DNA from: Clostridia bacterium
GTDB lineage: Bacteria > Bacillota > Clostridia > UMGS1883
Length of the DNA: 64,000 nt
Direction: 5' to 3'
Assembly: GCA_017411435.1 (NCBI GenBank)
Contig: JAFQQD010000027.1
Coordinates: forward strand, 2,926-66,925
Part shown: positions 11,524 through 41,628 of the stretch, piece by piece
Layout: each line of letters starts with the position of its first letter
Position numbering within the stretch: position 1 is the first letter of the stretch
Made by a program: the position numbers and the translations under genes
The notes under the pieces: generated by a model
Seen by the model: the letters and a program-made list of their open reading frames with translations, nothing else
Databases searched by the model: none
What the model was told of the DNA's origin: nothing

Positions 11524-11628
11524 TGTTATGCCACTTTTCTTTAATTTTTACTGTTTAGTTCACGAAACTAAAATTGTTTACTGTTCTTGAGAATTCCAGT
11601 GTGTTTTTTAATGGTTTTTTATGAAAAA

Positions 11629-11699
11629 GTGGGCAGTTGGTGGGCAAAACCCACCAAAAAATCACTCTGCCCACCACAAAAAATGCCATTTGCCCACCA
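11629..11699. repeat. Putative integrase arm-type sites near attL
   Basis: GTGGGCAGTTGGTGGGCAAAA 11629-11649 (exact copy at 24080-24100); inverted TGCCCACCA at 11668 and 11691. Confidence 0.7.
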
Positions 11700-11707
11700 A
11701 AGTATTG

Positions 11708-12849: not shown

Positions 12850-12977
12850 TTTCCACCTCCTTAAAAATAATATAATTTTGAGTTTATACAAATATAAATC
12901 TCTTTATAATTGTTTTAACACCATTTTATATTACTGTCAAATTATAAAAATATTTATATTTTGGTAAAGGTTTTGAT

Positions 12978-13124
12978 GGACTGCTTAAAAGATACTTTGA
13001 AACAAAACTGGTAAAAAAATCACAAAACTAAATCTGGACCGGTTCTGTGTTAGATTTAATTTCTGCAAAAAATAACCAGTTTTCAAAATAGGGGTTCAAA
13101 GGTCTGTTAGATAGATATTTTGAA
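12978..13124 (+). repeat. 147-bp structured direct repeat, copy A
   Basis: 3 mismatches to 20267-20413; nested inverted arms AAACTGGT/ACCAGTTT and TAAATCT/AGATTTA. Confidence 0.92.
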
Positions 13125-13130
13125 ATAAAA

Positions 13131-13161
13131 AAACTACCAACTGAAAAACAGTTGATAGTTT
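13131..13161 (-). terminator. Intrinsic terminator
   Basis: AAACTACCAACTG-aaaaa-CAGTTGATAGTTT hairpin at the 3' end of 13166-13642. Confidence 0.65.
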
Positions 13162-14042: not shown

Positions 14043-15044
14043 TTAACTATATAAATAAATCTGTTTCAGGTCCTTTCTTTCCCCACTATGAGATAAGTGC
14101 CTTTGAATAACCATACTTTCTGCTTTTTCTTTACTCCACCCTTTATCAAGATAATATTGTAGTGCAATCTGGCAGTGATATTTTCTAAATTGGTGGTTTT
14201 TCCCACTGACTTCTAACCCCAATTCTTTTGTGATTTTTCTTATTTCATTACTCATAATTTGCCTTGTTGCTTTTGTGTCCTTTGGTAAGTCAAAAAGTCT
14301 GTCAGTTGGGTTCTTGCCTTGTTTCAGTTCTTCAAAAAAACTTCTGTATTCTGGGAGTATAATTCTATAACTATCTTTGCCACCTTTACCTACAATATGA
14401 ACAGTAGAATAAGTGTCTATTCTTCCATCTTTGGTAGTGGTGGTATAGGTATGAGTGTCAAGGTTAATATCTTCTGCTTTTATATTTATGAGTTCAGAAA
14501 CTCTGCAACCTAAAAATGCCATTGTCTTAATCTCATTTTGTCTGTTCCCTTTGTAGTTGCATATCTGTATAATTTCAGTATTTGTGTAAGTTCTTGCAGA
14601 ATTAGTTTTATATGTATCTTCCACCTTGTGTGCCTTTACTTCTTGTGTATAAAACTGCTCACAACCAAACTTTTTGGAACAAGCAATAGAAACTTTTTCC
14701 AACATATTTTTGTATGCAGCAACAGTTTTTTTACTGCAACCTTGTTTTGTGTTCAAATATTCCAGACACATTTTTGGTGTGATTTCTTTAACCATTTTTA
14801 TGTTGTAGTTTTCTTTCAAGAACTTAACAAAGTTTTTGCTTTTCTCTGCCAAGCATTGTGCAGTTCTTTGAGAAAATACATAGTTAATGCTTGTCCCATT
14901 TTTCTTAAACTCCCTTTTGCCAACACTTGAAAAATGAGTGCCATTTTCTCTGTTGTAAATCTCTGTTCTTTTTTCTTGATTTTGCATATTTATTTCTGCA
15001 AGTGCAGTGTGTATTTGATAACCCAAAGACTTATTTTTGCCCAT
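14043..15044 (-). CDS. Second tyrosine recombinase (candidate recombinase-type relaxase)
   Basis: GCRVSEL (R), GKGGK (K), HQFR (HxxR), LSH and terminal Y; no recognisable arm-binding domain. Confidence 0.8.
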   Translation of the reverse strand: MGKNKSLGYQIHTALAEINMQNQEKRTEIYNRENGTHFSSVGKREFKKNGTSINYVFSQRTAQCLAEKSKNFVKFLKENYNIKMVKEITPKMCLEYLNTKQGCSKKTVAAYKNMLEKVSIACSKKFGCEQFYTQEVKAHKVEDTYKTNSARTYTNTEIIQICNYKGNRQNEIKTMAFLGCRVSELINIKAEDINLDTHTYTTTTKDGRIDTYSTVHIVGKGGKDSYRIILPEYRSFFEELKQGKNPTDRLFDLPKDTKATRQIMSNEIRKITKELGLEVSGKNHQFRKYHCQIALQYYLDKGWSKEKAESMVIQRHLSHSGERKDLKQIYLYS

Positions 15045-15073: not shown

Positions 15074-15609
15074 TCACTGAAAATGGCAACATTTTCAGTG
15101 ATTTTTCCATAAAAAATGATTTTACACATTTTTTATAATTTTTTTCCTATTAAATACATTTTATTCCTTTTTATTTCTTTTTTCTGGTGCAGTGCAAAAT
15201 TGTTTAGGTTTAAATCAACCTAACCAATTTTGCAACAAAGTTTGGTATAATAAAAACCGGTTTTTTATTATACCAAATATGTGCAAAAAAAATCTGCTAC
15301 AACCAATAGCAGATTTTATCTGTCTTTTGAAAAATCACTCTTTGACTTTTTATAAGTTTAGTATGGCAGTTGCCACAAAGAACTTTTAAAAAGTCCCAAA
15401 AATAATTTATGATAAACACCACAAGTGGTGGAAAGAAAAATTATTTTTCCCTTGTTTCCTTATCAAGAGAAAATGTCTTTTGTGGGAAAGACAAAGAGTG
15501 TAAGAGTGATTTTTTCCAAAAGTTGTGTATAAGTAAAAAGTTTTAATATTATATAGTCTATCTGTAAGTTAAAACTTTATTGTTGCGAGTGCAAGAGTTC
15601 TGCTCTTGC
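15074..15609. other. Non-coding cluster of inverted repeats (candidate oriT/origin)
   Basis: IRs at 15074-15101, 15193-15234, 15241-15277, 15289-15317 and 15591-15609, plus shorter ones; no credible ORF. Confidence 0.55.
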
Positions 15610-16827: not shown

Positions 16828-16975
16828 ACTATACACCAAAAAATCTATTCTGTCAAGTCAAAAATACAAAAATAACACCCCAAGTGTTTTGGAATAAAAA
16901 ATATTTTAAAAATATTTCAAAAAACCATTGACACAATAATTTTTGTATGTTATAATATAAAACACTGAGGGTGTT
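16828..16975. promoter_or_regulatory. Divergent sigma-A promoters with two inverted 15-bp operators
   Basis: Plus strand: TTGACA 16928, 17 bp, TATAAT 16951. Minus strand: TTGACA (16856-16851), 17 bp, TATAGT. Operators AACACCCCAAGTGTT 16874-16888 and AACACTGAGGGTGTT 16961-16975 (13/15 as reverse complements). Confidence 0.8.
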
Positions 16976-17041: not shown

Positions 17042-17254
17042 ATGACAACTTCAAGACTTGTGTTAAGTGTTTGTGAAGTAGCAAAGATATTAGGTGTCAA
17101 TAAGGGTTCAGTTTATGCCTTAATACATAGTGGAGCATTATCTGCTATAAAGTTTGGAACATACAAAGTTCCTTCTTTTGAAGTAGATAATTTTCTTCAC
17201 AAGTATTCTGGTTGTGATTTAACTGACCTTAATAATATAAAAACATTAAATTAA
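17042..17254 (+). CDS. xis: Excisionase (HTH_17/MerR-like)
   Basis: LSVCEVAKILGVNKGSVYALIHSGAL.A.KFG; directly upstream of int. Confidence 0.85.
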   Translation: MTTSRLVLSVCEVAKILGVNKGSVYALIHSGALSAIKFGTYKVPSFEVDNFLHKYSGCDLTDLNNIKTLN

Positions 17255-17271
17255 GAAAAGGAGTGTTGAAA

Positions 17272-18492
17272 ATGGCAGAAAAGATTTATGAAGGAACAAG
17301 ATTTAAGGGTGGTAGTTGGAGATACAGAATAAAAATGACACTGCCCAATGGTACAAAAATTAACAAAGAAAAAGCAGGTTTCAAAAGTTCTTATGAGGCA
17401 AGTCAAGCAAGAATTGAAGAGATTGGCAGAATAAAACTCACAAACTTTGTTGAGAAAAAGATAACTTTAAATGAAATGTATAGTCTTTACTTGAAAGAAA
17501 GTGCAACAAAGCAGAAGAGTTATAACACAGTGTTAAGGTATAATTCCATATACAAAAACCATATTGAAAATAGTCTTGGAGAAATGTATGTGGCAAGAAT
17601 ACAACCACTTGACATTACACATTTCTTAAATGAAAAGGCAGAGCAGTATAAGACTGACTACCCTTTGAGTATGTATAACTTTTTCTTGGTTCTCTTTGAT
17701 TTTGCAAGAAAGCATAAGTATATAAATGAAGATATTATGGCATTGGTTGAAAGACCAAGACCTTACACAAGACCAGAAAAGGTGTTGCTAACCCCAGAAG
17801 AGTTTAATGCTCTTGAAAAAAGGTTAATGTCAACAAATGTGCAAGTTGCTTTTACCATAGGAAAAAATAGTGGTTTAAGGGCAAGTGAAGTATATGGGTT
17901 AAGGTGGAGTGATTTTGACTTTGAAAACAACACTTTTGAAGTTAAAAGACAACTTCAAAAAAGGGAAATCAAAGAAGGTGGCAAAGTCTGGCATTTAGTT
18001 CCAGTGAAAACCACAAAAAGTGAAAGAACCATTTATTTTGGAGAAGAGTTTTCCCAGTATATGCAGTTTGTGAAGAAAATGCAAGAAGAAAACAGAAAAA
18101 GACTTGGTAAGTTCTATAAGAGCAACATAATAAATGCTGCAATGGACAAAAATCACCCAGAAATTGTGGAGATTTGGAATGTTGAAGATTTTGTCTGTGT
18201 AAAAGAAAATGGTGCAATGCTTTCTCCAGATAGCAACAAGGTTATTAGCAGAATTGCAAAAGAAATGGGTTTAAAGTTTAACTTCCATTTGTTAAGACAC
18301 TACTATGCAAGTGCCTTACAACAAAATGGTGTTGATATTACAGTTATTAGAGATTGTCTGGGACACTCTAATTTAAGAACCTTGCTTGAAGTCTATTCAC
18401 ATTGCAATGAAGAACAAAGAAGAAGTGCAGGAGCATTGATTGACAGTCTTATGGGTGCTAAAAATCTTATGCCAGAACCAGTGGCAGAGTAA
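17272..18492 (+). CDS. int: Tyrosine integrase with N-terminal arm-binding region
   Basis: GGSWRYRI...GF N-terminus; GLRASE, HLLRH, LGH and VYSH catalytic motifs; ATG 17272 after AAGGAG. Confidence 0.95.
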   Translation: MAEKIYEGTRFKGGSWRYRIKMTLPNGTKINKEKAGFKSSYEASQARIEEIGRIKLTNFVEKKITLNEMYSLYLKESATKQKSYNTVLRYNSIYKNHIENSLGEMYVARIQPLDITHFLNEKAEQYKTDYPLSMYNFFLVLFDFARKHKYINEDIMALVERPRPYTRPEKVLLTPEEFNALEKRLMSTNVQVAFTIGKNSGLRASEVYGLRWSDFDFENNTFEVKRQLQKREIKEGGKVWHLVPVKTTKSERTIYFGEEFSQYMQFVKKMQEENRKRLGKFYKSNIINAAMDKNHPEIVEIWNVEDFVCVKENGAMLSPDSNKVISRIAKEMGLKFNFHLLRHYYASALQQNGVDITVIRDCLGHSNLRTLLEVYSHCNEEQRRSAGALIDSLMGAKNLMPEPVAE

Positions 18493-18513: not shown

Positions 18514-18600
18514 ACCTTCTCAAGAGTTGATAATGAAGATACTGTAAATAGTGTTTTCTTTGTTATATATAGAACACAAAAATTAAAAAAATAATTAAAA

Positions 18601-18656
18601 AAGGAGGAGTAGCAGTCAATAGTGGTGTTCCTTTTGCAACTGCTACAAAAGAAAAT
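18601..18656 (+). repeat. SD-hairpin leader, variant 0
   Basis: AAGGAGGA-GTAGCAGT..22 nt..ACTGCTAC-AAAAGAAAAT-ATG. Confidence 0.6.
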
Positions 18657-19094
18657 ATGGAAGTAAAAAAAATCAAAGAATTAGCAAAAGAAAACTTTGA
18701 AAAAGGTTTTTGGGAAAGACATTTTAATTATGCCAGAACCAGTGAAGAAAACCAAAAATGTATGTTGGAAATCATTGAGAAAACTAAAAAAGTTTATGAT
18801 TTGGTTGAAAGTGAAAGTGTTTCATTTGAAGAAAAGTTGAATATGCTTTTTGAAATTGCAGAGAAAGTTTTTGAATATGATTTTGGAATCTGTTTGACAG
18901 AGTGGAAAAAGTATAGTGGCAATATAAATGAGTGTTTACATATAATTGAAATTGATAAAAATGCTCCATATCTAACCCAGTCAAAAAATAGTTTAACTGA
19001 TATTAAAAGCAAAACCTTGTATGGTGCAATAGTTTCCATAAATGTAGGTCTGCTAAAAGAAATATATTTTAATATGAAAGGAGAGTGGGAGTAA
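18657..19094 (+). CDS. Hypothetical protein (cassette 1)
   Basis: 145-aa ORF; its last codons and stop (KGEWE*) are encoded by the next leader repeat. Confidence 0.75.
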   Translation: MEVKKIKELAKENFEKGFWERHFNYARTSEENQKCMLEIIEKTKKVYDLVESESVSFEEKLNMLFEIAEKVFEYDFGICLTEWKKYSGNINECLHIIEIDKNAPYLTQSKNSLTDIKSKTLYGAIVSINVGLLKEIYFNMKGEWE

Positions 19095-19108
19095 ATCTCC
19101 CACAACAA
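19078..19108 (+). repeat. SD-hairpin leader 1
   Basis: AAGGAGA-GTGGGAG-taaat-CTCCCAC-AACAA. Confidence 0.85.
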
Positions 19109-19113
19109 GAAAA

Positions 19114-19374
19114 ATGACTGTTAGAACATTGAAAAAACATTATAAAAAGAACTTCCCAGAAGGACACTTTTTTGATAAAGAAACATTAGAATATTGGGGA
19201 GAGAGTATAAATGCTATGTCAATATCAAAAAACTTGGTTGATTTTAAAGGTCATAAGTGCTATGAATTAGTTGCTCTTCAAAAAAATGATTATCATAACT
19301 TGAATAGATATGTATGGTTTTATTTTGATTGTGAAACTTTTGCATATATTGATTGTAAGTTTAAAAAAGATTAA
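19114..19374 (+). CDS. Hypothetical protein (cassette 2)
   Basis: 86-aa ORF with GHFFDKETLEYWG; aromatic-rich. Confidence 0.75.
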   Translation: MTVRTLKKHYKKNFPEGHFFDKETLEYWGESINAMSISKNLVDFKGHKCYELVALQKNDYHNLNRYVWFYFDCETFAYIDCKFKKD

Positions 19375-19380
19375 AAGTGA

Positions 19381-19412
19381 AAGGAGAGTGGGGACACTGC
19401 TCCCCACAACAA
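19381..19412 (+). repeat. SD-hairpin leader 2
   Basis: AAGGAGA-GTGGGGA-cactgc-TCCCCAC-AACAA. Confidence 0.9.
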
Positions 19413-19419
19413 TTTTATT

Positions 19420-20205
19420 ATGACAAAGTTTGAAAATTATTTTAACAATAAAGACCTTGATAAGAAAACCATTGAAAAATATCTTAAAATCATAGAAAAC
19501 TTGTGTATAGAGTTTGAAGATATAGGTCTACACCCATATAATTATGTTAATGATATGCTATGTATAGCAGAATATTTTGGTGTGGAATTGTGCTACCCAC
19601 TTATCACAGGAGAGAAAGCAGAAAAAATTGTTTTTGAAAAATTAAAATCAAAAATAGAAAATATGGAATATGATTATAATTATGATAATGATACTGAAAC
19701 ACTTATTGACTGGAAAGAACTCAGTGATTTTGTTTATGATATACATAGAAATAGTGAAGATATATATTACTACTATTACAAAACAGATAGCAATTCAGTT
19801 ATGGGTGTTTCTCAACTGGGGGAAGTAGATATAAATAATATTAGAAAAAATCTTTTAGAAAAAATAATAGAGATTGTAGATAATGAACAAGGGAGAGTGG
19901 GGACACTGCTCCCCACAACAGAAAAAATGAAGTATAAAATGAATATAACAATTACCTATAATGACATTGAAACAACCATTGATTTAGATTGTAATTTTTT
20001 TATCATTAAAGAAAATGACTATGGCAACAAATATCATTTGTCAATTACAAACAAATTGGGTTTTAATGAGTGGGTTGATATTAGATATGACACAACCTTT
20101 GATATCAACAAAAAAGAAAAGTATCTTGTGGACTGGGCATATAATTATTGGACTGGTAAAAATGGTGCTTGGGGAATCAAGAGAATTAAAGTCATAAAAC
20201 TATAA
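19420..20205 (+). CDS. Hypothetical protein; in-frame fusion of cassettes 3 and 4 (internal start at 19927)
   Basis: 261-aa ORF that reads through leader 3 as GRVGTLLPTT; in-frame ATG at 19927. Confidence 0.7.
   Translation: MTKFENYFNNKDLDKKTIEKYLKIIENLCIEFEDIGLHPYNYVNDMLCIAEYFGVELCYPLITGEKAEKIVFEKLKSKIENMEYDYNYDNDTETLIDWKELSDFVYDIHRNSEDIYYYYYKTDSNSVMGVSQLGEVDINNIRKNLLEKIIEIVDNEQGRVGTLLPTTEKMKYKMNITITYNDIETTIDLDCNFFIIKENDYGNKYHLSITNKLGFNEWVDIRYDTTFDINKKEKYLVDWAYNYWTGKNGAWGIKRIKVIKL
19889..19920 (+). repeat. SD-hairpin leader 3 (inside ORF)
   Basis: AAGGGAGA-GTGGGGA-cactgc-TCCCCAC-AACA, essentially identical to leader 2. Confidence 0.9.
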
Positions 20206-20212
20206 ATGTATT

Positions 20213-20239
20213 AACCACCAACTATGGCAGTTGGTGGTT
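20213..20239 (+). terminator. Terminator of the cassette array
   Basis: AACCACCAACT-atggc-AGTTGGTGGTT followed by T-rich sequence. Confidence 0.8.
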
Positions 20240-20266
20240 TTCTTATACTCTGGAAAAGGGTTTAAG

Positions 20267-20413
20267 GGACTGTTTAAAAGATACTTTGAAACAGAACTGG
20301 TAAAAAAATCACAAAACTAAATCTGGACCAGTTCTGTGTTAGATTTAATTTCTGCAAAAAATAACCAGTTTTCAAAATAGGGGTTCAAAGGTCTGTTAGA
20401 TAGATATTTTGAA
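20267..20413 (+). repeat. 147-bp structured direct repeat, copy B
   Basis: Near-identical to 12978-13124. Confidence 0.92.
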
Positions 20414-20489
20414 TTATAAAAAAGGTGTTTATAAAGTTCTCTATAAATAAACAATTACAAAAAATAACATAATAAAGGGAGTGCTACAA

Positions 20490-20894
20490 ATGACACCAAC
20501 ATTAAAAGAACAGAAGAAAGAGTGCTTAACCAGATTGAAACTTTCTGGGTTATGCAATGAAGTTATTACAGACTTCAAAAATGGGCAGTTATACAAGACT
20601 GAACAACTGGGTATATTGTATTATATCAATGACAATGAAAAGGCAGTGGTTAAAGACTTTGAAGAAAAAAATAATGCTATGGTATATCATATATTACATA
20701 GTAATACAGAGTTTGGAGAATTACTTGCTTTACTCTATGTCAGTAAATACAAGGAAGAGTGGCAAACTGACAGAGAAGATTTAAAAGATAATATTGCTTT
20801 GTCTTATGTCTATAATGTTGATTGCCCAGATTTCAGTGAGTTTGGTTCTATTGGTTTTGCCCAGAGATTTGGGGGACTTGTGAGAACTGCATAA
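20490..20894 (+). CDS. Hypothetical protein (LYVSKYKEEW...DREDL...SEFGSIG...GGLVR)
   Basis: 134-aa ORF; ATG at 20490 after AAGGGAG; own terminator at about 20897-20943. Confidence 0.8.
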   Translation: MTPTLKEQKKECLTRLKLSGLCNEVITDFKNGQLYKTEQLGILYYINDNEKAVVKDFEEKNNAMVYHILHSNTEFGELLALLYVSKYKEEWQTDREDLKDNIALSYVYNVDCPDFSEFGSIGFAQRFGGLVRTA

Positions 20895-20973
20895 CCCCAC
20901 CACCACCAACCAATAAAAATTATGGTTGAGTGGTGGTTTTTTTTAACTTTTTTATGTTAATTCTGTGAAATTA

Positions 20974-21002
20974 TTGATTTTCCAACAGATATATGGTATA
21001 AT
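20974..21002 (+). promoter_or_regulatory. Sigma-A promoter of the MTase operon
   Basis: TTGATT, 17 bp, TGgTATAAT. Confidence 0.7.
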
Positions 21003-21039
21003 AAATACTAACTATACTTGCATATAGGAGAAGATAAAA

Positions 21040-22188
21040 ATGGCAGGGACAAAAGATTTACATAATGCAAAAAAAGAGAAAAAAGATGAGTTTTATACTC
21101 AACTTGAAGATATAGAACTTGAACTAAAACATTATAGAAATGACTTTAAAGGCAAGGTTATTTTTTGTAATTGTGATGACCCCTATGAAAGTAATTTCTT
21201 TAAATACTTTGCAATGAACTTTAATACTTTTGGACTTAAAAAGTTAATTGCTACTTGTTATGCTACTTCCCCAGTGGCAAACACACAACTTTCTTTGTTT
21301 GATATTTTAGATATGCCAGAAGAAACAGAAGAAGATAACAGAAAACCACATAAAATAGAGATTACAGAAGTTCTGGACTACAATGAAGATGGAGCAGTAG
21401 ATTTAGCAGATGTTGAGTTTCTTTTAAGAAGTAAAAAAAACACTCTTACACTTCTTAATGGAGATGGAGATTTTAGAAGTGAAGAGTGTATAGAACTTTT
21501 AAAACAAGCAGACATAGTTATAACAAACCCACCATTTTCTTTGTTTAGAGAATATGTTGCTCAACTAATTGAATATGACAAGAAGTTTATTATTATAGGA
21601 AATAAAAATGCTATCACTTATAAAGAAATATTTTCTTTAATACAAGAAGAGAAAATGTGGTTGGGTTATAGAAATATAAATGCAGATATGTGGTTTATAG
21701 TTCCAAAAGACTATGAGTGTGAAAAGGTTGTAAATGGTTTAAGAGTTAAGCATATTATGGGTTGTTGGTTCACAAATCTTGACACAACTAAAAGACACGA
21801 AGATTTATTGCTTTTCAAACCATATACCCCAGAAGAATACCCCAAATATGATAATTATGATGCCATAAATGTTGATAAAGTTAGTGATATTCCTTGTGAT
21901 TATGATGGTGTTATTGGAGTTCCTATAACATTTCTTGATAAATACAACCCTAACCAATTTGAAATACTTGGGTTGTCTCAAAAAGTTGGTATGGGGTTAG
22001 AAAGCAACAAGTTTTATGATGATTACAAGGAAGTAAGACAAGATGGCAGTTTTACTGGTAGTTCTGGCAAAAAAACAAATGGAAACCCAGTAATGAAAGG
22101 AAAACCAGAAAAAGGAAATTACTACACTAATGGAACTGATTTTGTATATTCTCTCTATGGAAGAATATTCATAAGGAAAAAAAGGTGA
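21040..22188 (+). CDS. Adenine-specific DNA methyltransferase, EcoRI family
   Basis: K.DEFYTQL, CNCDDP.ESNF, GDFRS.E, ITNPPFSLFREY and GVPITFLDKYNP.QFEI motifs. Confidence 0.92.
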   Translation: MAGTKDLHNAKKEKKDEFYTQLEDIELELKHYRNDFKGKVIFCNCDDPYESNFFKYFAMNFNTFGLKKLIATCYATSPVANTQLSLFDILDMPEETEEDNRKPHKIEITEVLDYNEDGAVDLADVEFLLRSKKNTLTLLNGDGDFRSEECIELLKQADIVITNPPFSLFREYVAQLIEYDKKFIIIGNKNAITYKEIFSLIQEEKMWLGYRNINADMWFIVPKDYECEKVVNGLRVKHIMGCWFTNLDTTKRHEDLLLFKPYTPEEYPKYDNYDAINVDKVSDIPCDYDGVIGVPITFLDKYNPNQFEILGLSQKVGMGLESNKFYDDYKEVRQDGSFTGSSGKKTNGNPVMKGKPEKGNYYTNGTDFVYSLYGRIFIRKKR

Positions 22189-22192
22189 GTTT

Positions 22193-23302
22193 ATGGAAAT
22201 AAGATTAGAAGAAAAAACAATTAGAGAAATCTATAATGGTTATCTTGATAGTGCAGAAAATGGAGTGGTTGCATTTGGTGGAAAATTAAATGTAAGACCA
22301 CCTTTCCAGAGAGAGTTTGTCTATTCTGGCAAACAGAGAGATGCAGTCATTGATACAATACAAAAAGACTTCCCATTAAATGTTATGTATTGGGTTGAAA
22401 ATGACAATGGTTATTATGAACTTCTTGATGGACAACAAAGAACCATAAGCATTTGTCAATATGTGGGTGGAGAATATTCCATAAACCACAGAGCATTTGG
22501 AAACTTGACTGAAACTGAAAAAGAGCAGATTTTGAATTATAAACTAATGATTTATATTTGTAAAGGTAATGACAAAGAGAAATTAGACTGGTTCAAAATC
22601 ATAAATATTGCAGGAGAAAAACTAACAGACCAAGAGTTGAGAAATGCCATTTATACTGGTGAGTGGTTGTCAAATGCAAAAGCATATTTTTCTAAAAATA
22701 ACTGCCCAGCATATCAAATAGCAAGTAAATATATGAGGGGAACACCCATAAGACAAGACTACCTTGAAACAGTCTTAAAATGGGTTTCTGCAAGAGATAA
22801 TATTGACTTGGAAGATTATATGGCAGAACACCAGAACACCACAAATGCAAGTGAATTATGGTTGTATTTCAACAGTGTTATTACTTGGGTAAAAACTATA
22901 TTCCCTAATTACAGAAAAGAAATGCAAGGCATTGAGTGGGGACTGCTCTATAACAAATATGGTAATGATAAACTTGACCCACAAGAACTTGAAAAAAGAA
23001 TAGTTGAGTTAATGCAAGATGATGACATAACAAAAAGAAGTGGCATATATGAATACTTATTAAGTGGAGAAGAAAAATACTTGAACATAAGAAGTTTCAC
23101 AGACACAATGAAAAGAAAAGTCTATGAGAAACAAAAAGGTATATGCCCACATTGTAAAGCAGAGAAGAAAGAGAAAATACACTGGGAGATTGAAGAAATG
23201 GAAGCAGACCACATTACACCTTGGTGTGAAGGAGGAAAAACAGAAATTGAAAATTGCCAAATGCTCTGCAAAGAACATAACAGAAGAAAATCAAGTAAAT
23301 AA
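22193..23302 (+). CDS. DUF262 (GmrS-like) plus C-terminal HNH endonuclease
   Basis: P.FQR, DGQQRT and F..IN motifs; CPHC...MEADHITPW.EGGKT...NCQMLC..HN.RK. Confidence 0.9.
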   Translation: MEIRLEEKTIREIYNGYLDSAENGVVAFGGKLNVRPPFQREFVYSGKQRDAVIDTIQKDFPLNVMYWVENDNGYYELLDGQQRTISICQYVGGEYSINHRAFGNLTETEKEQILNYKLMIYICKGNDKEKLDWFKIINIAGEKLTDQELRNAIYTGEWLSNAKAYFSKNNCPAYQIASKYMRGTPIRQDYLETVLKWVSARDNIDLEDYMAEHQNTTNASELWLYFNSVITWVKTIFPNYRKEMQGIEWGLLYNKYGNDKLDPQELEKRIVELMQDDDITKRSGIYEYLLSGEEKYLNIRSFTDTMKRKVYEKQKGICPHCKAEKKEKIHWEIEEMEADHITPWCEGGKTEIENCQMLCKEHNRRKSSK

Positions 23303-23312
23303 GGAAGAAAAT

Positions 23313-23939
23313 ATGCCAGATTTTTCAATTAAAGCAATAGTTTTAACAATAATTACAACAATAATTACAACTTTAATAGGAATAATAATTAAGGGTATTT
23401 CAATCAGTAAAATAAAAAAATGGTGGGAAGATACAAGAATATATAAGTATTTTAAAAGGTATCAATTTGTTAATGATATTGAAGACAATCAAAAGACCTT
23501 TAGCACCTTTATAACATTAAGCAAAAGTAATACAGACCAAACAAATACAGAATATCAAAAAGCAATGTTTTCCATACAAGACAAATTACATAAAACAGTA
23601 GTTAAAGAAAAGGAACTTTGGGGGAAAATCAAATCAAGTACAACATCTCCAAAGGAAAGAGAAATATTAAATGAATTATTGTCAATAAATAGTGGTGGTA
23701 ATACTGATAATATTTCAAAAAGTGAATTAAAAACTATTGGAGATAAAAGGTTGAAGTGTTGTAAGCAGTATATTAAAACACTAAAAAAATATCAACAAAC
23801 ACCAATAGAGAATTATCAAGTTGAAAAACTTGACTGCTTGAAAGATTATGTTAATGCAACAAAGTCTTATTATGAATTGTTGTATATCTATTTACCCATT
23901 GACAAAAGAAATATTATAGAAAAATCTTTTAATAAATAA
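23313..23939 (+). CDS. Hypothetical protein with N-terminal transmembrane helix
   Basis: IKAIVLTIITTIITTLIGIII; ATG 10 bp after the HNH gene stop. Confidence 0.7.
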   Translation: MPDFSIKAIVLTIITTIITTLIGIIIKGISISKIKKWWEDTRIYKYFKRYQFVNDIEDNQKTFSTFITLSKSNTDQTNTEYQKAMFSIQDKLHKTVVKEKELWGKIKSSTTSPKEREILNELLSINSGGNTDNISKSELKTIGDKRLKCCKQYIKTLKKYQQTPIENYQVEKLDCLKDYVNATKSYYELLYIYLPIDKRNIIEKSFNK

Positions 23940-23944
23940 AAAGA

Positions 23945-23973
23945 TTGCAATATCAAGCAGTATGTGGTATAAT
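23945..23973 (+). promoter_or_regulatory. Outward-facing sigma-A promoter pointing at attR and ftnA
   Basis: TTGCAA, 17 bp, TGgTATAAT; no credible ORF before attR. Confidence 0.65.
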
Positions 23974-24060
23974 AAAAATACATAATCACAGAATATAAAT
24001 ATACTGTGATAAACAGAAACAGACCTAAAACCTTTGGTTTTATGCCCTTATTCTTTGAAA

Positions 24061-24100
24061 TGGTGGGCACAAGAAAAAGGTGGGCAGTTGGTGGGCAAAA
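24061..24100. repeat. Putative integrase arm-type sites near attR
   Basis: TGGTGGGCA 24061; GTGGGCAGTTGGTGGGCAAAA 24080-24100. Confidence 0.7.
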
Positions 24101-41536: not shown

Positions 41537-41628
41537 GGAGAGATGGCTGAGTTGGTCTAAGGCGCACGACTGGAAATCGTGTAACGGCTAATACCCGTTC
41601 GAGGGTTCGAATCCCTCTCTCTCCGCCA
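41537..41628 (+). tRNA. tRNA-Ser (anticodon GGA)
   Basis: GGAGAGA/TCTCTCC acceptor stem; CACGA-CTGGAAA-TCGTG anticodon arm; long variable arm; GGTTCGAATCC T-loop; encoded CCA. Confidence 0.97.

Follow-up and report, generated by a model that had tools for sequence, protein, structure and literature searches.

A stretch of 64,000 nucleotides (nt) of the Clostridia bacterium contig JAFQQD010000027.1 (assembly GCA_017411435.1) was analysed at its full length and is called the window below. The segment 18600-20248 of the window is the variable cargo slot of an integrative island of about 12.5 kb of gut Clostridia. The slot was found to contain an array of small open reading frames (ORFs), here called cassettes, and four leaders, each made up of a Shine-Dalgarno sequence (SD), a hairpin, an A-rich spacer of 10-12 nt and an ATG. 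The leaders were found at the ORF starts given by an earlier reading of the same DNA (the sequence-only reading). That reading had counted four ORF starts; the four leaders exist, and ATG 19927 was found to lie in frame within the ORF 19420-20205 without an intervening stop codon. The array was placed correctly, directly 3' of the integrase gene and closed by a single terminator (Table 1).

Table 1. Positions of the leaders, the cassettes and the other features of the island in the window
Feature	Position	Strand	Description
Upstream box GAACAC	18572..18577	+	complement of GTGTTC (loop of leader 1, 18625-18630); candidate pseudoknot partner
Leader 1 (long-loop type)	18600..18659	+	SD AAAGGAGGA 18600-18608; 10-nt A-rich spacer; ATG 18657
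Leader 1 stem	18609-18616 / 18639-18646	+	GTAGCAGT / ACTGCTAC; 8 bp, 22-nt loop
Leader 2 (type A)	19077..19116	+	SD AAAGGAG 19077-19083, then A; 10-nt spacer AACAAGAAAA; ATG 19114
Leader 2 stem	19085-19091 / 19097-19103	+	GTGGGAG / CTCCCAC; loop TAAAT contains the stop codon of ORF1
Leader 3 (type B)	19380..19422	+	SD AAAGGAG 19380-19386, then A; 12-nt spacer; ATG 19420
Leader 3 stem	19388-19394 / 19401-19407	+	GTGGGGA / TCCCCAC; loop CACTGC
Leader 4 (type B)	19891..19929	+	SD GGGAG 19891-19895; 10-nt spacer; ATG 19927; inside the fused ORF, in frame
Leader 4 stem	19897-19903 / 19910-19916	+	GTGGGGA / TCCCCAC; loop CACTGC; same stem as leader 3
Cassette ORF1, family F1	18657..19094	+	145 amino acids (aa); predicted six-helix bundle; stop codon in the loop of leader 2
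Cassette ORF2, family F6	19114..19374	+	86 aa; also in L011 and L031; dN/dS (ratio of nonsynonymous to synonymous rates) 0.35
261-aa ORF	19420..20205	+	acidic F2-family cassette (aa 1-169) joined in frame to an ORF4-family cassette (aa 170-261); same fusion in L002
Intrinsic terminator closing the array	20213..20248	+	11-bp stem (20213-20239), then T-run; right breakpoint of cassette-block swaps
Conserved 134-aa gene	20490..20894	+	ordinary SD; right anchor of the variable slot
Left 26-nt direct repeat (candidate attL core)	11624..11649	+	from repeat analysis; followed by GGTGGGCA motifs and the palindrome TTGGTGGG-CAAAA-CCCACCAA
Right 26-nt direct repeat (candidate attR core)	24075..24100	+	from repeat analysis
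Second tyrosine recombinase	14043-15044	-	333 aa
Consensus sigma-70-like promoter upstream of xis	16928..16956	+	TTGACA, 17 nt, TG-TATAAT; pattern match only
Excisionase-like HTH_17 gene (xis)	17042..17254	+	
Tyrosine integrase (int)	17263..18492 (alternative start 17272)	+	SAM_3 and catalytic domains; arm-binding match weak
Hairpin over the int stop codon	18489..18515	+	11 bp, GTAAAGGGTGG/CCACCCTTTAC, no T-run

Leaders of the array

The leaders 2-4 were found by repeat analysis of the window to form a single direct-repeat family, and the leaders 3 and 4 were identical across 29 nt. A strict pattern (GGAG and, after 0-3 nt, a perfect stem of 7 bp or more, with an ATG 8-14 nt beyond it) was scanned over both strands of the 64 kb and matched these four leaders only, with a chance expectation of 0.26 +/- 0.53 from block shuffles.

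Several other identities of the leaders were considered and rejected. The hairpins are GC-rich, lack a T-run (U-tract) and are followed on the 3' side by AACAA or AAAAG; they were rejected as intrinsic terminators, in agreement with the sequence-only reading, and 20213-20239 was the only strong stem of the plus strand that qualified in the array. The leaders 2 and 3 were flagged as terminators on the minus strand, which reflects the complement of the SD (CTCCTTT), and no minus-strand gene or strong promoter was found downstream. A CRISPR-like repeat was rejected on account of the 300-500-nt spacing and the ORFs between the copies, the GTG of the 5' arm as the true start codon on account of its position 1 nt from the SD and its frame of only 11 codons, and an RNase III site because the stems are too short. 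The covariance models of Rfam 15 gave no match to the leaders at the gathering threshold and only a chance U6atac at E values up to 1.

Related islands and turnover of the cassettes

The ORF 19420-20205 (ORF3) was found to have a single relative among 5.8 billion proteins, on a 1.4-kb contig (L002) which contained a single unrelated 142-aa ORF in place of ORF1 and ORF2 between the same leaders. A scan of GTDB with the pattern GGAGAGTGGGR-N3-9-YCCCACAAC gave 13 matches, nine of them chance matches in unrelated or high-GC genomes and four of them true leaders, which were found in Clostridia metagenome-assembled genomes of four species at the same position in the same kind of island. With the 134-aa gene as anchor, 18 further contigs were collected, all of which contained the frame of a minus-strand helix-turn-helix (HTH) gene, xis and int, followed after the slot by the 134-aa gene. 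A scan of the JGI metagenomes with the 134-aa profile gave one short contig only. Scans of IMG/VR with the leader (three patterns) and the 134-aa protein gave one high-GC chance match only, and the element is therefore not a recognised virus.

Twelve further distinct arrays, from the genomes of the four GTDB species and from metagenome contigs, were found to keep the frame and the leaders and to differ in the content and order of the cassettes. The 13 distinct arrays contained about 12 ORF families, with two to four small genes per array described and a single gene in some. The cassettes were F1, F6 and F2 fused to ORF4 in the window, F7 and F2 fused to ORF4 in L002, F1-F1-F6-X92 in L011, F2-F5 in L015, F1-F2 in L016, F7-Y217 in L018, F1-Z155-F5 in L020, F2-W139 in L021/L022, F1-F5 in L023/L024, F7 in L030, F1-F6 in L031, F2 in L035 and F1 in L037. 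The identity within the cassette families was 22-71%, and that of the 134-aa protein 72-99%; the integrase was 64-95% identical in most islands and 41% identical in two, L011 and L035.

The portable expression modules proposed by the sequence-only reading were borne out by the same leader of about 45 nt, which stands before unrelated ORFs in at least 12 other arrays. An invariant gene order among related elements, which that reading had named as the finding that would speak against it, was not encountered; the content and order of the cassettes varied, even between islands that are 99% identical. A subgroup of the islands (L025-L029, integrase 69% identical) contained genes for a 156-aa membrane protein and a 269-aa N6 methylase in the slot, with ordinary SDs and no hairpins, and some of these copies contained a RelB/YoeB pair downstream.

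Structure and covariation of the leaders

On folding, a hairpin was found directly 3' of the SD in all 25 leaders collected, with an ensemble median of 0.99 for the probability of the hairpin and of 0.72 for the probability that the SD is free, P(SD free). The leaders 2 and 3 were predicted to form their stems at -12.8 kcal/mol (z -3.0) and -15.8 kcal/mol (z -3.4), respectively. The stem of leader 1 was also predicted to form, at -13.2 kcal/mol, with a z score of only -1.2 that is not significant by energy alone.

Twelve distinct stems were present among the leaders. In the alignment from which the loops had been excised (the MAFFT alignment of the long-loop leaders was not structure-consistent), 96.4% of the cells were paired, a percentage inflated by the choice of the stem arms for pairing, and six of the seven pairs were changed on both sides. 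The covariation score was 0.853, compared with 0.318 +/- 0.056 in shuffles (none of 500 as high) and 0.08-0.23 in slid-partner controls. Independently of the choice of arms, every leader had a stem in the same position, irrespective of the sequence of that stem, and G.U pairs were present on the sense strand as intermediates in L018, L037 and L011. Covariation of the stems had been claimed from the window, which contains only three stem versions; it became convincing once the related loci were added.

A covariance model built from the short-loop leaders matched only inside the arrays of 24 sources (E values from 4e-11 to 1.6e-7, 257 kb searched), and matched the long-loop class-II leaders more weakly. 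No copy was found outside the arrays across the 64-kb window and about 190 kb of related loci.

The long-loop leaders were found to contain a box, 23-30 nt upstream of the stem, complementary to the loop of the hairpin. Four sequence versions of box and loop were present, namely GAACAC/GTGTTC in the window, TGCCACT/AGTGGCA, ATAGTACCATAA/TTATGGTACTAT, and AGCACTAT/ATGGTGCT with one G.U pair, and the z scores of the duplex ranged from -1.6 to -6.8. The complementarity implies a pseudoknot-like fold that would enclose the SD linker. In the class-II leaders L020_1, L021_1, L011_1 and L016_1, the box UGCCACUCC can pair either with the loop of the hairpin or with the SD (GGAGAGUG). The modelled folds suggest that the class-II leaders may be a two-state switch.

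Such folds bear on an explanation in which the leader would be a translational operator, and an RNA-binding factor of the element or the host, or a fold switch, would switch the whole array on or off at once, such as only on entry into a new cell or on induction. One common motif does stand before all cassettes, downstream of a putatively repressor-controlled pair of divergent promoters, the SD of the type B leaders can be sequestered in an alternative helix, and the class-II box has the two partners just described. The island gave no candidate for an RNA-binding protein, however, a sequence-specific binder is unlikely since the loops of types A and B differ and the stems vary, and the type A leaders lack a competitive alternative fold. 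The operator is considered unlikely.

Spacing of the leaders and initiation of translation

The linear distance between the SD and the AUG was found to be 29-51 nt in the 25 leaders (standard deviation 7.6), compared with 10-14 nt (12.1 +/- 1.1) after removal of the hairpin. The gap between SD and stem was always 1-3 nt, followed by a stem of 7-10 bp and a spacer of 9-12 nt between stem and AUG that was A-rich and unstructured. The SD AGAAAGGAG is a strong one, with complementarity over 9 nt to the Firmicute 16S 3' end, and neither a second SD nor a GG was found in the stem-AUG spacers of the 25 leaders. All other genes of the island contained an ordinary SD 7-9 nt from the start.

In the split ribosome-binding sites of phage T4, experiments have shown that the looping out of a hairpin shortens the distance from 27 to 11 nt in gene 25 and from 22 to 5 nt in gene 38 (PMC3014915). 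The sequence-only reading had drawn this comparison, and the geometry of the leaders fits it. The features of such a site were present at the level of sequence, namely a distal SD without an alternative, a stable intervening stem, the effective spacing and compensatory change. In the messenger RNA (mRNA), the hairpin would fold and be looped out of the path of the ribosome, which would leave an effective 10-14 nt between SD and AUG. Stacking of the hairpin on the helix of SD and anti-SD is a further possibility. The loop of the first, long-loop leader may in addition pair with the box about 25-30 nt upstream, in a pseudoknot-like fold around the SD. We infer both the folding at the RNA level and its service to translation.

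Two natural experiments were found among the homologues of ORF4. In L044 and L045 each homologue stands as a gene of its own, with the SD and the spacer of the leader and no hairpin (GGAGAACATAAAATG), so that the stem-loop is a clean insert of about 20 nt in what would otherwise be a normal ribosome-binding site. L002 reads ORF4 solely as part of a fusion, and there mutations were found in the SD, in the 5' arm and in the ATG of the ORF4 leader. Both support a translational role. What the hairpin adds may be stacking on the SD helix, protection of the mRNA or regulation.

Protection of the message leads to a wider explanation, in which the hairpins are elements of mRNA processing or stability, translation is secondary, and the SD-bound ribosome and the stem-loop would protect the 5' end of the downstream cistron after endonucleolytic cleavage of the polycistronic transcript, or the stem the 3' end of the upstream cistron. 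Stems without T-runs and with AU-rich single-stranded flanks were found at every cistron boundary, the box-loop pairing of the first leader would tie down the 5'-proximal RNA, and the hairpin is dispensable for translation in the homologues, all of which would suit such elements. They would leave unexplained the constant gap between SD and stem and a stem-AUG spacer that holds whatever the size of the hairpin; there is no second SD for initiation, unlike in the STAB-SD compared below, and L002 lost the SD, the stem and the ATG of one leader together once the ORF was read as a fusion. A role in mRNA stability is judged unlikely.

The clean insertion relative to the hairpin-free homologues, together with the identity of copies within one element, could also point to a selfish or neutral palindromic insert that was spread by conversion between ribosome sites and is tolerated without a function. 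Compensatory changes that keep 12 stems paired, a spacing constraint that holds throughout, the restriction of all copies to the arrays and the absence of a transposase of the REP or IS200 type nearby speak against such an insert, which is scarcely credible.

Leaders as probable seams of exchange

The homology between the window and L015 was found to extend from int to 24 nt beyond ATG 18657, where it was lost, followed by the presence of a 33-nt patch of 100% identity at leader 2 (19078-19110) between unrelated ORFs and by the return of homology at the terminator (20214). In L020 and L021 the left flanks were 99.1% and the right flanks 99.8% identical and every cassette was different, with the left breakpoint in leader 1, past the SD and before the 3' arm, and the right breakpoint in the terminator hairpin. 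L020 and L023 differed by a precise indel of one 155-aa cassette between two leaders; the leader of L023 is a hybrid that contains a type B stem and the spacer of the next cassette, with the crossover within CCCACAACA. Between leader 4 and its counterpart in L002, 12 of 37 positions were different, in the SD, the 5' arm, the loop and the ATG (AAG in L002), and the 33 nt upstream and 15 nt downstream of that counterpart were identical to the window. The identity of leader 4 to leader 3 and the mutated counterpart between identical flanks indicate that the leader behaves as a discrete unit which is converted or lost. A repeated stem-loop motif was found to bound the indels or replacements of small ORFs in all four comparisons.

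The leader, nearly identical between cassettes and between islands over about 45 nt, would for that reason serve as a homology patch for the deletion, insertion, conversion and swapping of cassettes by ordinary recombination, and we infer that homologous recombination is the mechanism of exchange. The same leader types were found in L011 despite its 41%-identical integrase, which indicates that array and integrase recombine independently.

The sequence-only reading had compared the array with the cassettes of integrons and had proposed the leaders as possible substrates of one of the two recombinases. This part was not supported. The integrase scored 47.9 bits against TIGR02249 (cutoff 265) and 35.4 bits against PRK15417 (cutoff 435), and the second recombinase gave no match to either. 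The integrase gene was found upstream of the array and in the same direction of transcription as the cassettes, not divergent from them as intI is in integrons, which have attI and Pc in between. The attC sites of integrons are imperfect palindromes of 57-141 bp with R''-L''/L'-R' boxes (RYYYAAC ... GTTRRRY) and extrahelical bases, 3' of the cassette ORF. The hairpins of the leaders are perfect, with 7-10 bp and 17-39 nt in total, and lie 5' of the ORF within the ribosome-binding site; CCCACAAC is not an instance of RYYYAAC, nor is GTGGGGA one of GTTRRRY.

A recombination site for a non-IntI enzyme was weighed separately, in which the hairpins, or the inverted repeats that they form in the duplex, would be acted on by the island integrase or the second recombinase in an integron-like manner. 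Two recombinases are present, and the leaders are direct repeats that contain a 7-bp inverted repeat around a 5-6-nt spacer and delimit variable cassettes; a precise indel of one cassette exists, leader 4 resembles a short-patch conversion from leader 3, the class-II arms are the same as the GGTGGGCA repeats of the att sites, and the attP-like core of the island is itself a GTGGG...CCCAC palindrome. The three unrelated stems in one element and 12 in the family indicate, on the other side, that structure is conserved and not a binding sequence. On the sense strand the stem keeps a fixed position relative to SD and AUG. An attC site would be longer and less perfect than these stems and would contain R and L boxes, which they lack, and membership in IntI fails by a wide gap in bit score. 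The same leader types occur with the 41%-identical integrase, the second recombinase is also present in islands without hairpin leaders (L027), no hybrid stems were seen and the single mapped crossover lies 3' of the stem. The number of stems, the lock on SD and AUG and the G.U intermediates argue for a folded element of the sense strand rather than a protein-binding duplex, and recombination sites of this kind are regarded as improbable.

A more specific form of that idea is a system for cassette capture run by a non-integron tyrosine recombinase, either Int or the conserved 333-aa enzyme, with the hairpins as its structure-specific sites. It is left open by the match of the class-II arms to GGTGGGCA, the one-cassette indel and the apparent conversion of leader 4, and it is considered very improbable. 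If it were true, the sites would lie in the ribosome-binding site and every captured gene would arrive ready for translation.

The reading preferred here is that the leaders are split ribosome-binding sites which double as recombination seams, as the promoter-early stem-loops (PeSLs) do in T4-type phages, and it is given a little better than an even chance. Several observations weigh against it. The hairpin-free homologues of ORF4 indicate that the hairpin is not needed for translation, and the effective spacing of 10-14 nt exceeds the local norm of 7-9 nt. In leader 4, the minimum-energy fold was found to be an alternative helix that sequesters the SD (-14.0 kcal/mol, z -3.2), favoured by an extra G-C pair, with a P(SD free) of 0.11 in the ensemble prediction. 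The SD of the class-II leaders of other islands was predicted by nested folding to be sequestered nearly always (P free 0.01-0.04). The inflated percentage of paired cells belongs here as well, as does the match of the class-II stem arms (GTGGGCAG/TTGCCCAC) to the GGTGGGCA repeats, which leaves room for a role at the DNA level. Breakpoints at conserved leaders are expected under any mechanism of exchange and are no proof of homologous recombination.

Proteins of the cassettes

The residues 170-261 of the 261-aa ORF (ORF4) matched 112 representative clusters of proteins of about 95 aa, many of which start exactly at the methionine of ATG 19927. ORF4 is therefore a genuine stand-alone cassette, with the upstream stop codon lost in the window. 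The part upstream of it (ORF3N) was not homologous to the ORF upstream of ORF4 in L045, and ORF4 thus has different upstream partners in different arrays.

The dN/dS was 0.32-0.36 for ORF2, ORF4, F1 and F5 and about 1.07 for ORF3N, for which few substitutions were available. AlphaFold models were confident for F1, a six-helix bundle with a predicted local distance difference test score (pLDDT) of 89, and for ORF4, a beta-sheet plus helix with a pLDDT of 93. These ratios and models indicate that the cassette ORFs are real genes. The best Foldseek matches of the two models in the PDB had E values of 0.97 (F1) and 0.36 (ORF4), which are not significant, and no fold is therefore assigned to either. 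No match to any cassette ORF or to the 134-aa protein was found in Pfam, PHROGs and NCBIfam, none to the 134-aa profile in a sequence search of the PDB, and none to ORF4 in the plasmid and phage collections. The families F2 and F5 were strongly acidic, with isoelectric points (pI) of 4.0-4.65, except for the F2 of L016 (pI 5.1).

The homologues of the 134-aa protein were found in conjugative elements of Clostridia and Enterococcus. Those about 50% identical lie beside ArdA and PcfJ, and those about 34% identical have AcrIIA9, ssb, a nuclease and an orphan methylase as neighbours, a setting typical of the leading regions described in PMC11541004. The sequence-only reading had proposed anti-defence genes. 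That the cassettes act in establishment or counter-defence is plausible on circumstantial grounds only, namely the strong acidity of some families, their fast evolution and these neighbours of the 134-aa homologues; no cassette of the array matched a known anti-defence protein.

Homologues of the 134-aa protein (34-50% identical) were present in 328 plasmids, mostly of Enterococcus, as well as in conjugative elements (L038-L043 and L046). L046 is NZ_OQ434560.1, 24543-25037, and such loci contained genes for ArdA, PcfJ, an AcrIIA9-family protein, ssb, a thermonuclease and an orphan methylase. A homologue of the ORF4 family (45% identical) was found at 8001-8303 of L047 as the first gene of a rightward operon, with the genes for a CI-like repressor and a serine recombinase next to it; the locus is a siphovirus-like prophage and also contains siphovirus-type tail genes. 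It contained an ordinary ribosome-binding site, and its position is typical of early accessory genes.

The island and its fixed genes

The island was found to be inserted between the rubrerythrin and ferritin genes, with a GC content of 30% against 37% for the window. It contained a YpsA-like gene, an HTH gene, the 333-aa tyrosine recombinase and a 350-aa HTH protein (both on the minus strand), divergent consensus promoters, xis and int, followed by the presence of the array, the 134-aa gene, an EcoRI-type methylase and a GmrSD_N-HNH protein. The promoter upstream of xis, as matched by pattern, probably drives xis-int and, through read-through, the array. Between the 350-aa HTH gene and xis (16828-16956), near-consensus promoters were found back to back, with 12 of 12 and 11 of 12 matches. 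The layout resembles a switch of the lysogeny type, which would place xis-int, and probably the array too, under the control of a repressor.

The hairpin over the int stop codon was conserved with compensatory change, GGGTGG/CCACCC in the window against GAGTGG/CCACTC in L030 and L037. L011 and L035 have almost the same stem in the hairpin of a leader. An exact repeat of 17 nt (TTATGCCAGAACCAGTG) was present in different frames at the 3' end of int (18467-18483) and within ORF1 (18728-18744), with a chance expectation of about 0.005 in 13 kb, and may be the scar of an earlier rearrangement.

The motif GGTGGGCA was present in 13 copies in the window against 3.6 expected, four of them at the left end of the island in both orientations and three at the right end, in clusters at 11624-11700 and 24060-24100. 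A tandem pair of GGTGGGCA (a single copy in L037) was found to mark the right end of every related island in which that end was captured (L015, L016, L018, L020, L021, L023-L031 and L037). The palindrome TTGGTGGG-CAAAA-CCCACCAA at 11637-11657 is of the GTGGG...CCCAC type and looks like an attP core.

A direct repeat of 180 nt, 94% identical, was found at 12954-13133, between two minus-strand genes, and at 20243-20422, just past the array terminator and 5' of the 134-aa gene, both inside the island. It contained several inverted repeats, for example ACAGAACTGGT/ACCAGTTCTGT (20291-20337), was conserved in related islands, and could be a small RNA, an operator or a transfer-related site. The sequence TGGTATAATAAA was present three times (15243-15257, 20994-21008 and 23965-23979) as consensus extended -10 boxes, one of them 5' of the methylase gene and one facing the right end of the island.

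A second variable slot was found between the 134-aa gene and attR (20895-24075 of the window), with cargo of the restriction-modification kind. It contained the EcoRI-type methylase and the GmrSD_N-HNH protein in the window, L016 and L030, a Bsp6I endonuclease and a C5 methylase in L037, and almost nothing in L018. The sole Rfam match in the window was a tRNA gene at 41537-41625 (RF00005, 58.7 bits), which is unrelated to the island.

Comparison with known systems

The array resembles an integron in its co-oriented and mostly promoterless small ORFs beside a tyrosine recombinase, delimited by hairpin repeats and variable in content among relatives. It differs in its non-IntI, co-oriented integrase and in its perfect hairpins of 17-39 nt without attC boxes or extrahelical bases, 5' of each ORF. 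The leaders are also like the STAB-SD and other 5' stem-loop stabilisers, with a perfect SD well upstream of the start in a Firmicute message and beside secondary structure. The STAB-SD of B. thuringiensis cryIIIA, reportedly described by Agaisse and Lereclus in 1996, is said not to be used for initiation, the start codon being served by a second SD. The leaders, unlike it, contain no second SD.

The leading regions of plasmids contain clusters of small, variable and early-expressed anti-defence and establishment genes (PMC11541004, PMC13478746). The array is like them as a cluster of small, variable accessory genes on mobile DNA, and the homologues of the 134-aa protein were found among ArdA, AcrIIA9, ssb and an orphan methylase beside a relaxase. 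The single-stranded DNA promoters of leading regions are long hairpins of about 300 nt, in contrast to the 20-nt stems of the leaders, and no relaxase or origin of transfer (oriT) was identified in this island. The leader, xis-int and the 134-aa anchor together form a sequence handle for the harvesting of small, fast-evolving and uncharacterised genes, which are plausible establishment or counter-defence factors, two of them with confident novel folds by prediction.

The PeSLs are motifs of the hyperplastic regions of T4-type phages (PMC2839356, PMC4122927). Like them, the leader is a short conserved intergenic stem-loop module between small, non-essential ORFs of unknown function, bounding indels and replacements in close relatives. 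A PeSL contains a sigma-70 promoter and a stem-loop that terminates or attenuates transcription, whereas the leader belongs to a polycistronic message, has its stem between SD and AUG and lacks a T-run on the sense strand. The promoter scan gave no promoter-like hexamer pair over the leaders 2-4, so that the promoter of a PeSL is not part of them. The array would be an example of regulatory motifs as seams of gene shuffling outside phages and integrons.

The closest likeness is to the split, or accommodated, sites of the T4 genes 25 and 38 (Nivinskas 1999; Malys & Nivinskas 2009; reviewed in PMC3014915), which share with the leaders a distal SD, a stable intervening hairpin that shortens the effective spacing and a phylogenetically conserved stem. 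The T4 sites are single and gene-specific in a lytic coliphage, whereas the leaders, known here from sequence, are a family repeated before every gene of the array in integrative islands of Clostridia, move with or between unrelated ORFs, and add a box-loop pairing in the first copy. Hardly any split ribosome-binding sites are known apart from those of the two T4 genes, and a search of the literature on the concept gave little more. Here one such leader would be the standard part before every gene of a hypervariable slot in at least five lineages of gut Clostridia, and its 12 natural compensatory stem variants form a phylogenetic and experimental system for the bridging of a hairpin by the ribosome in a Firmicute.

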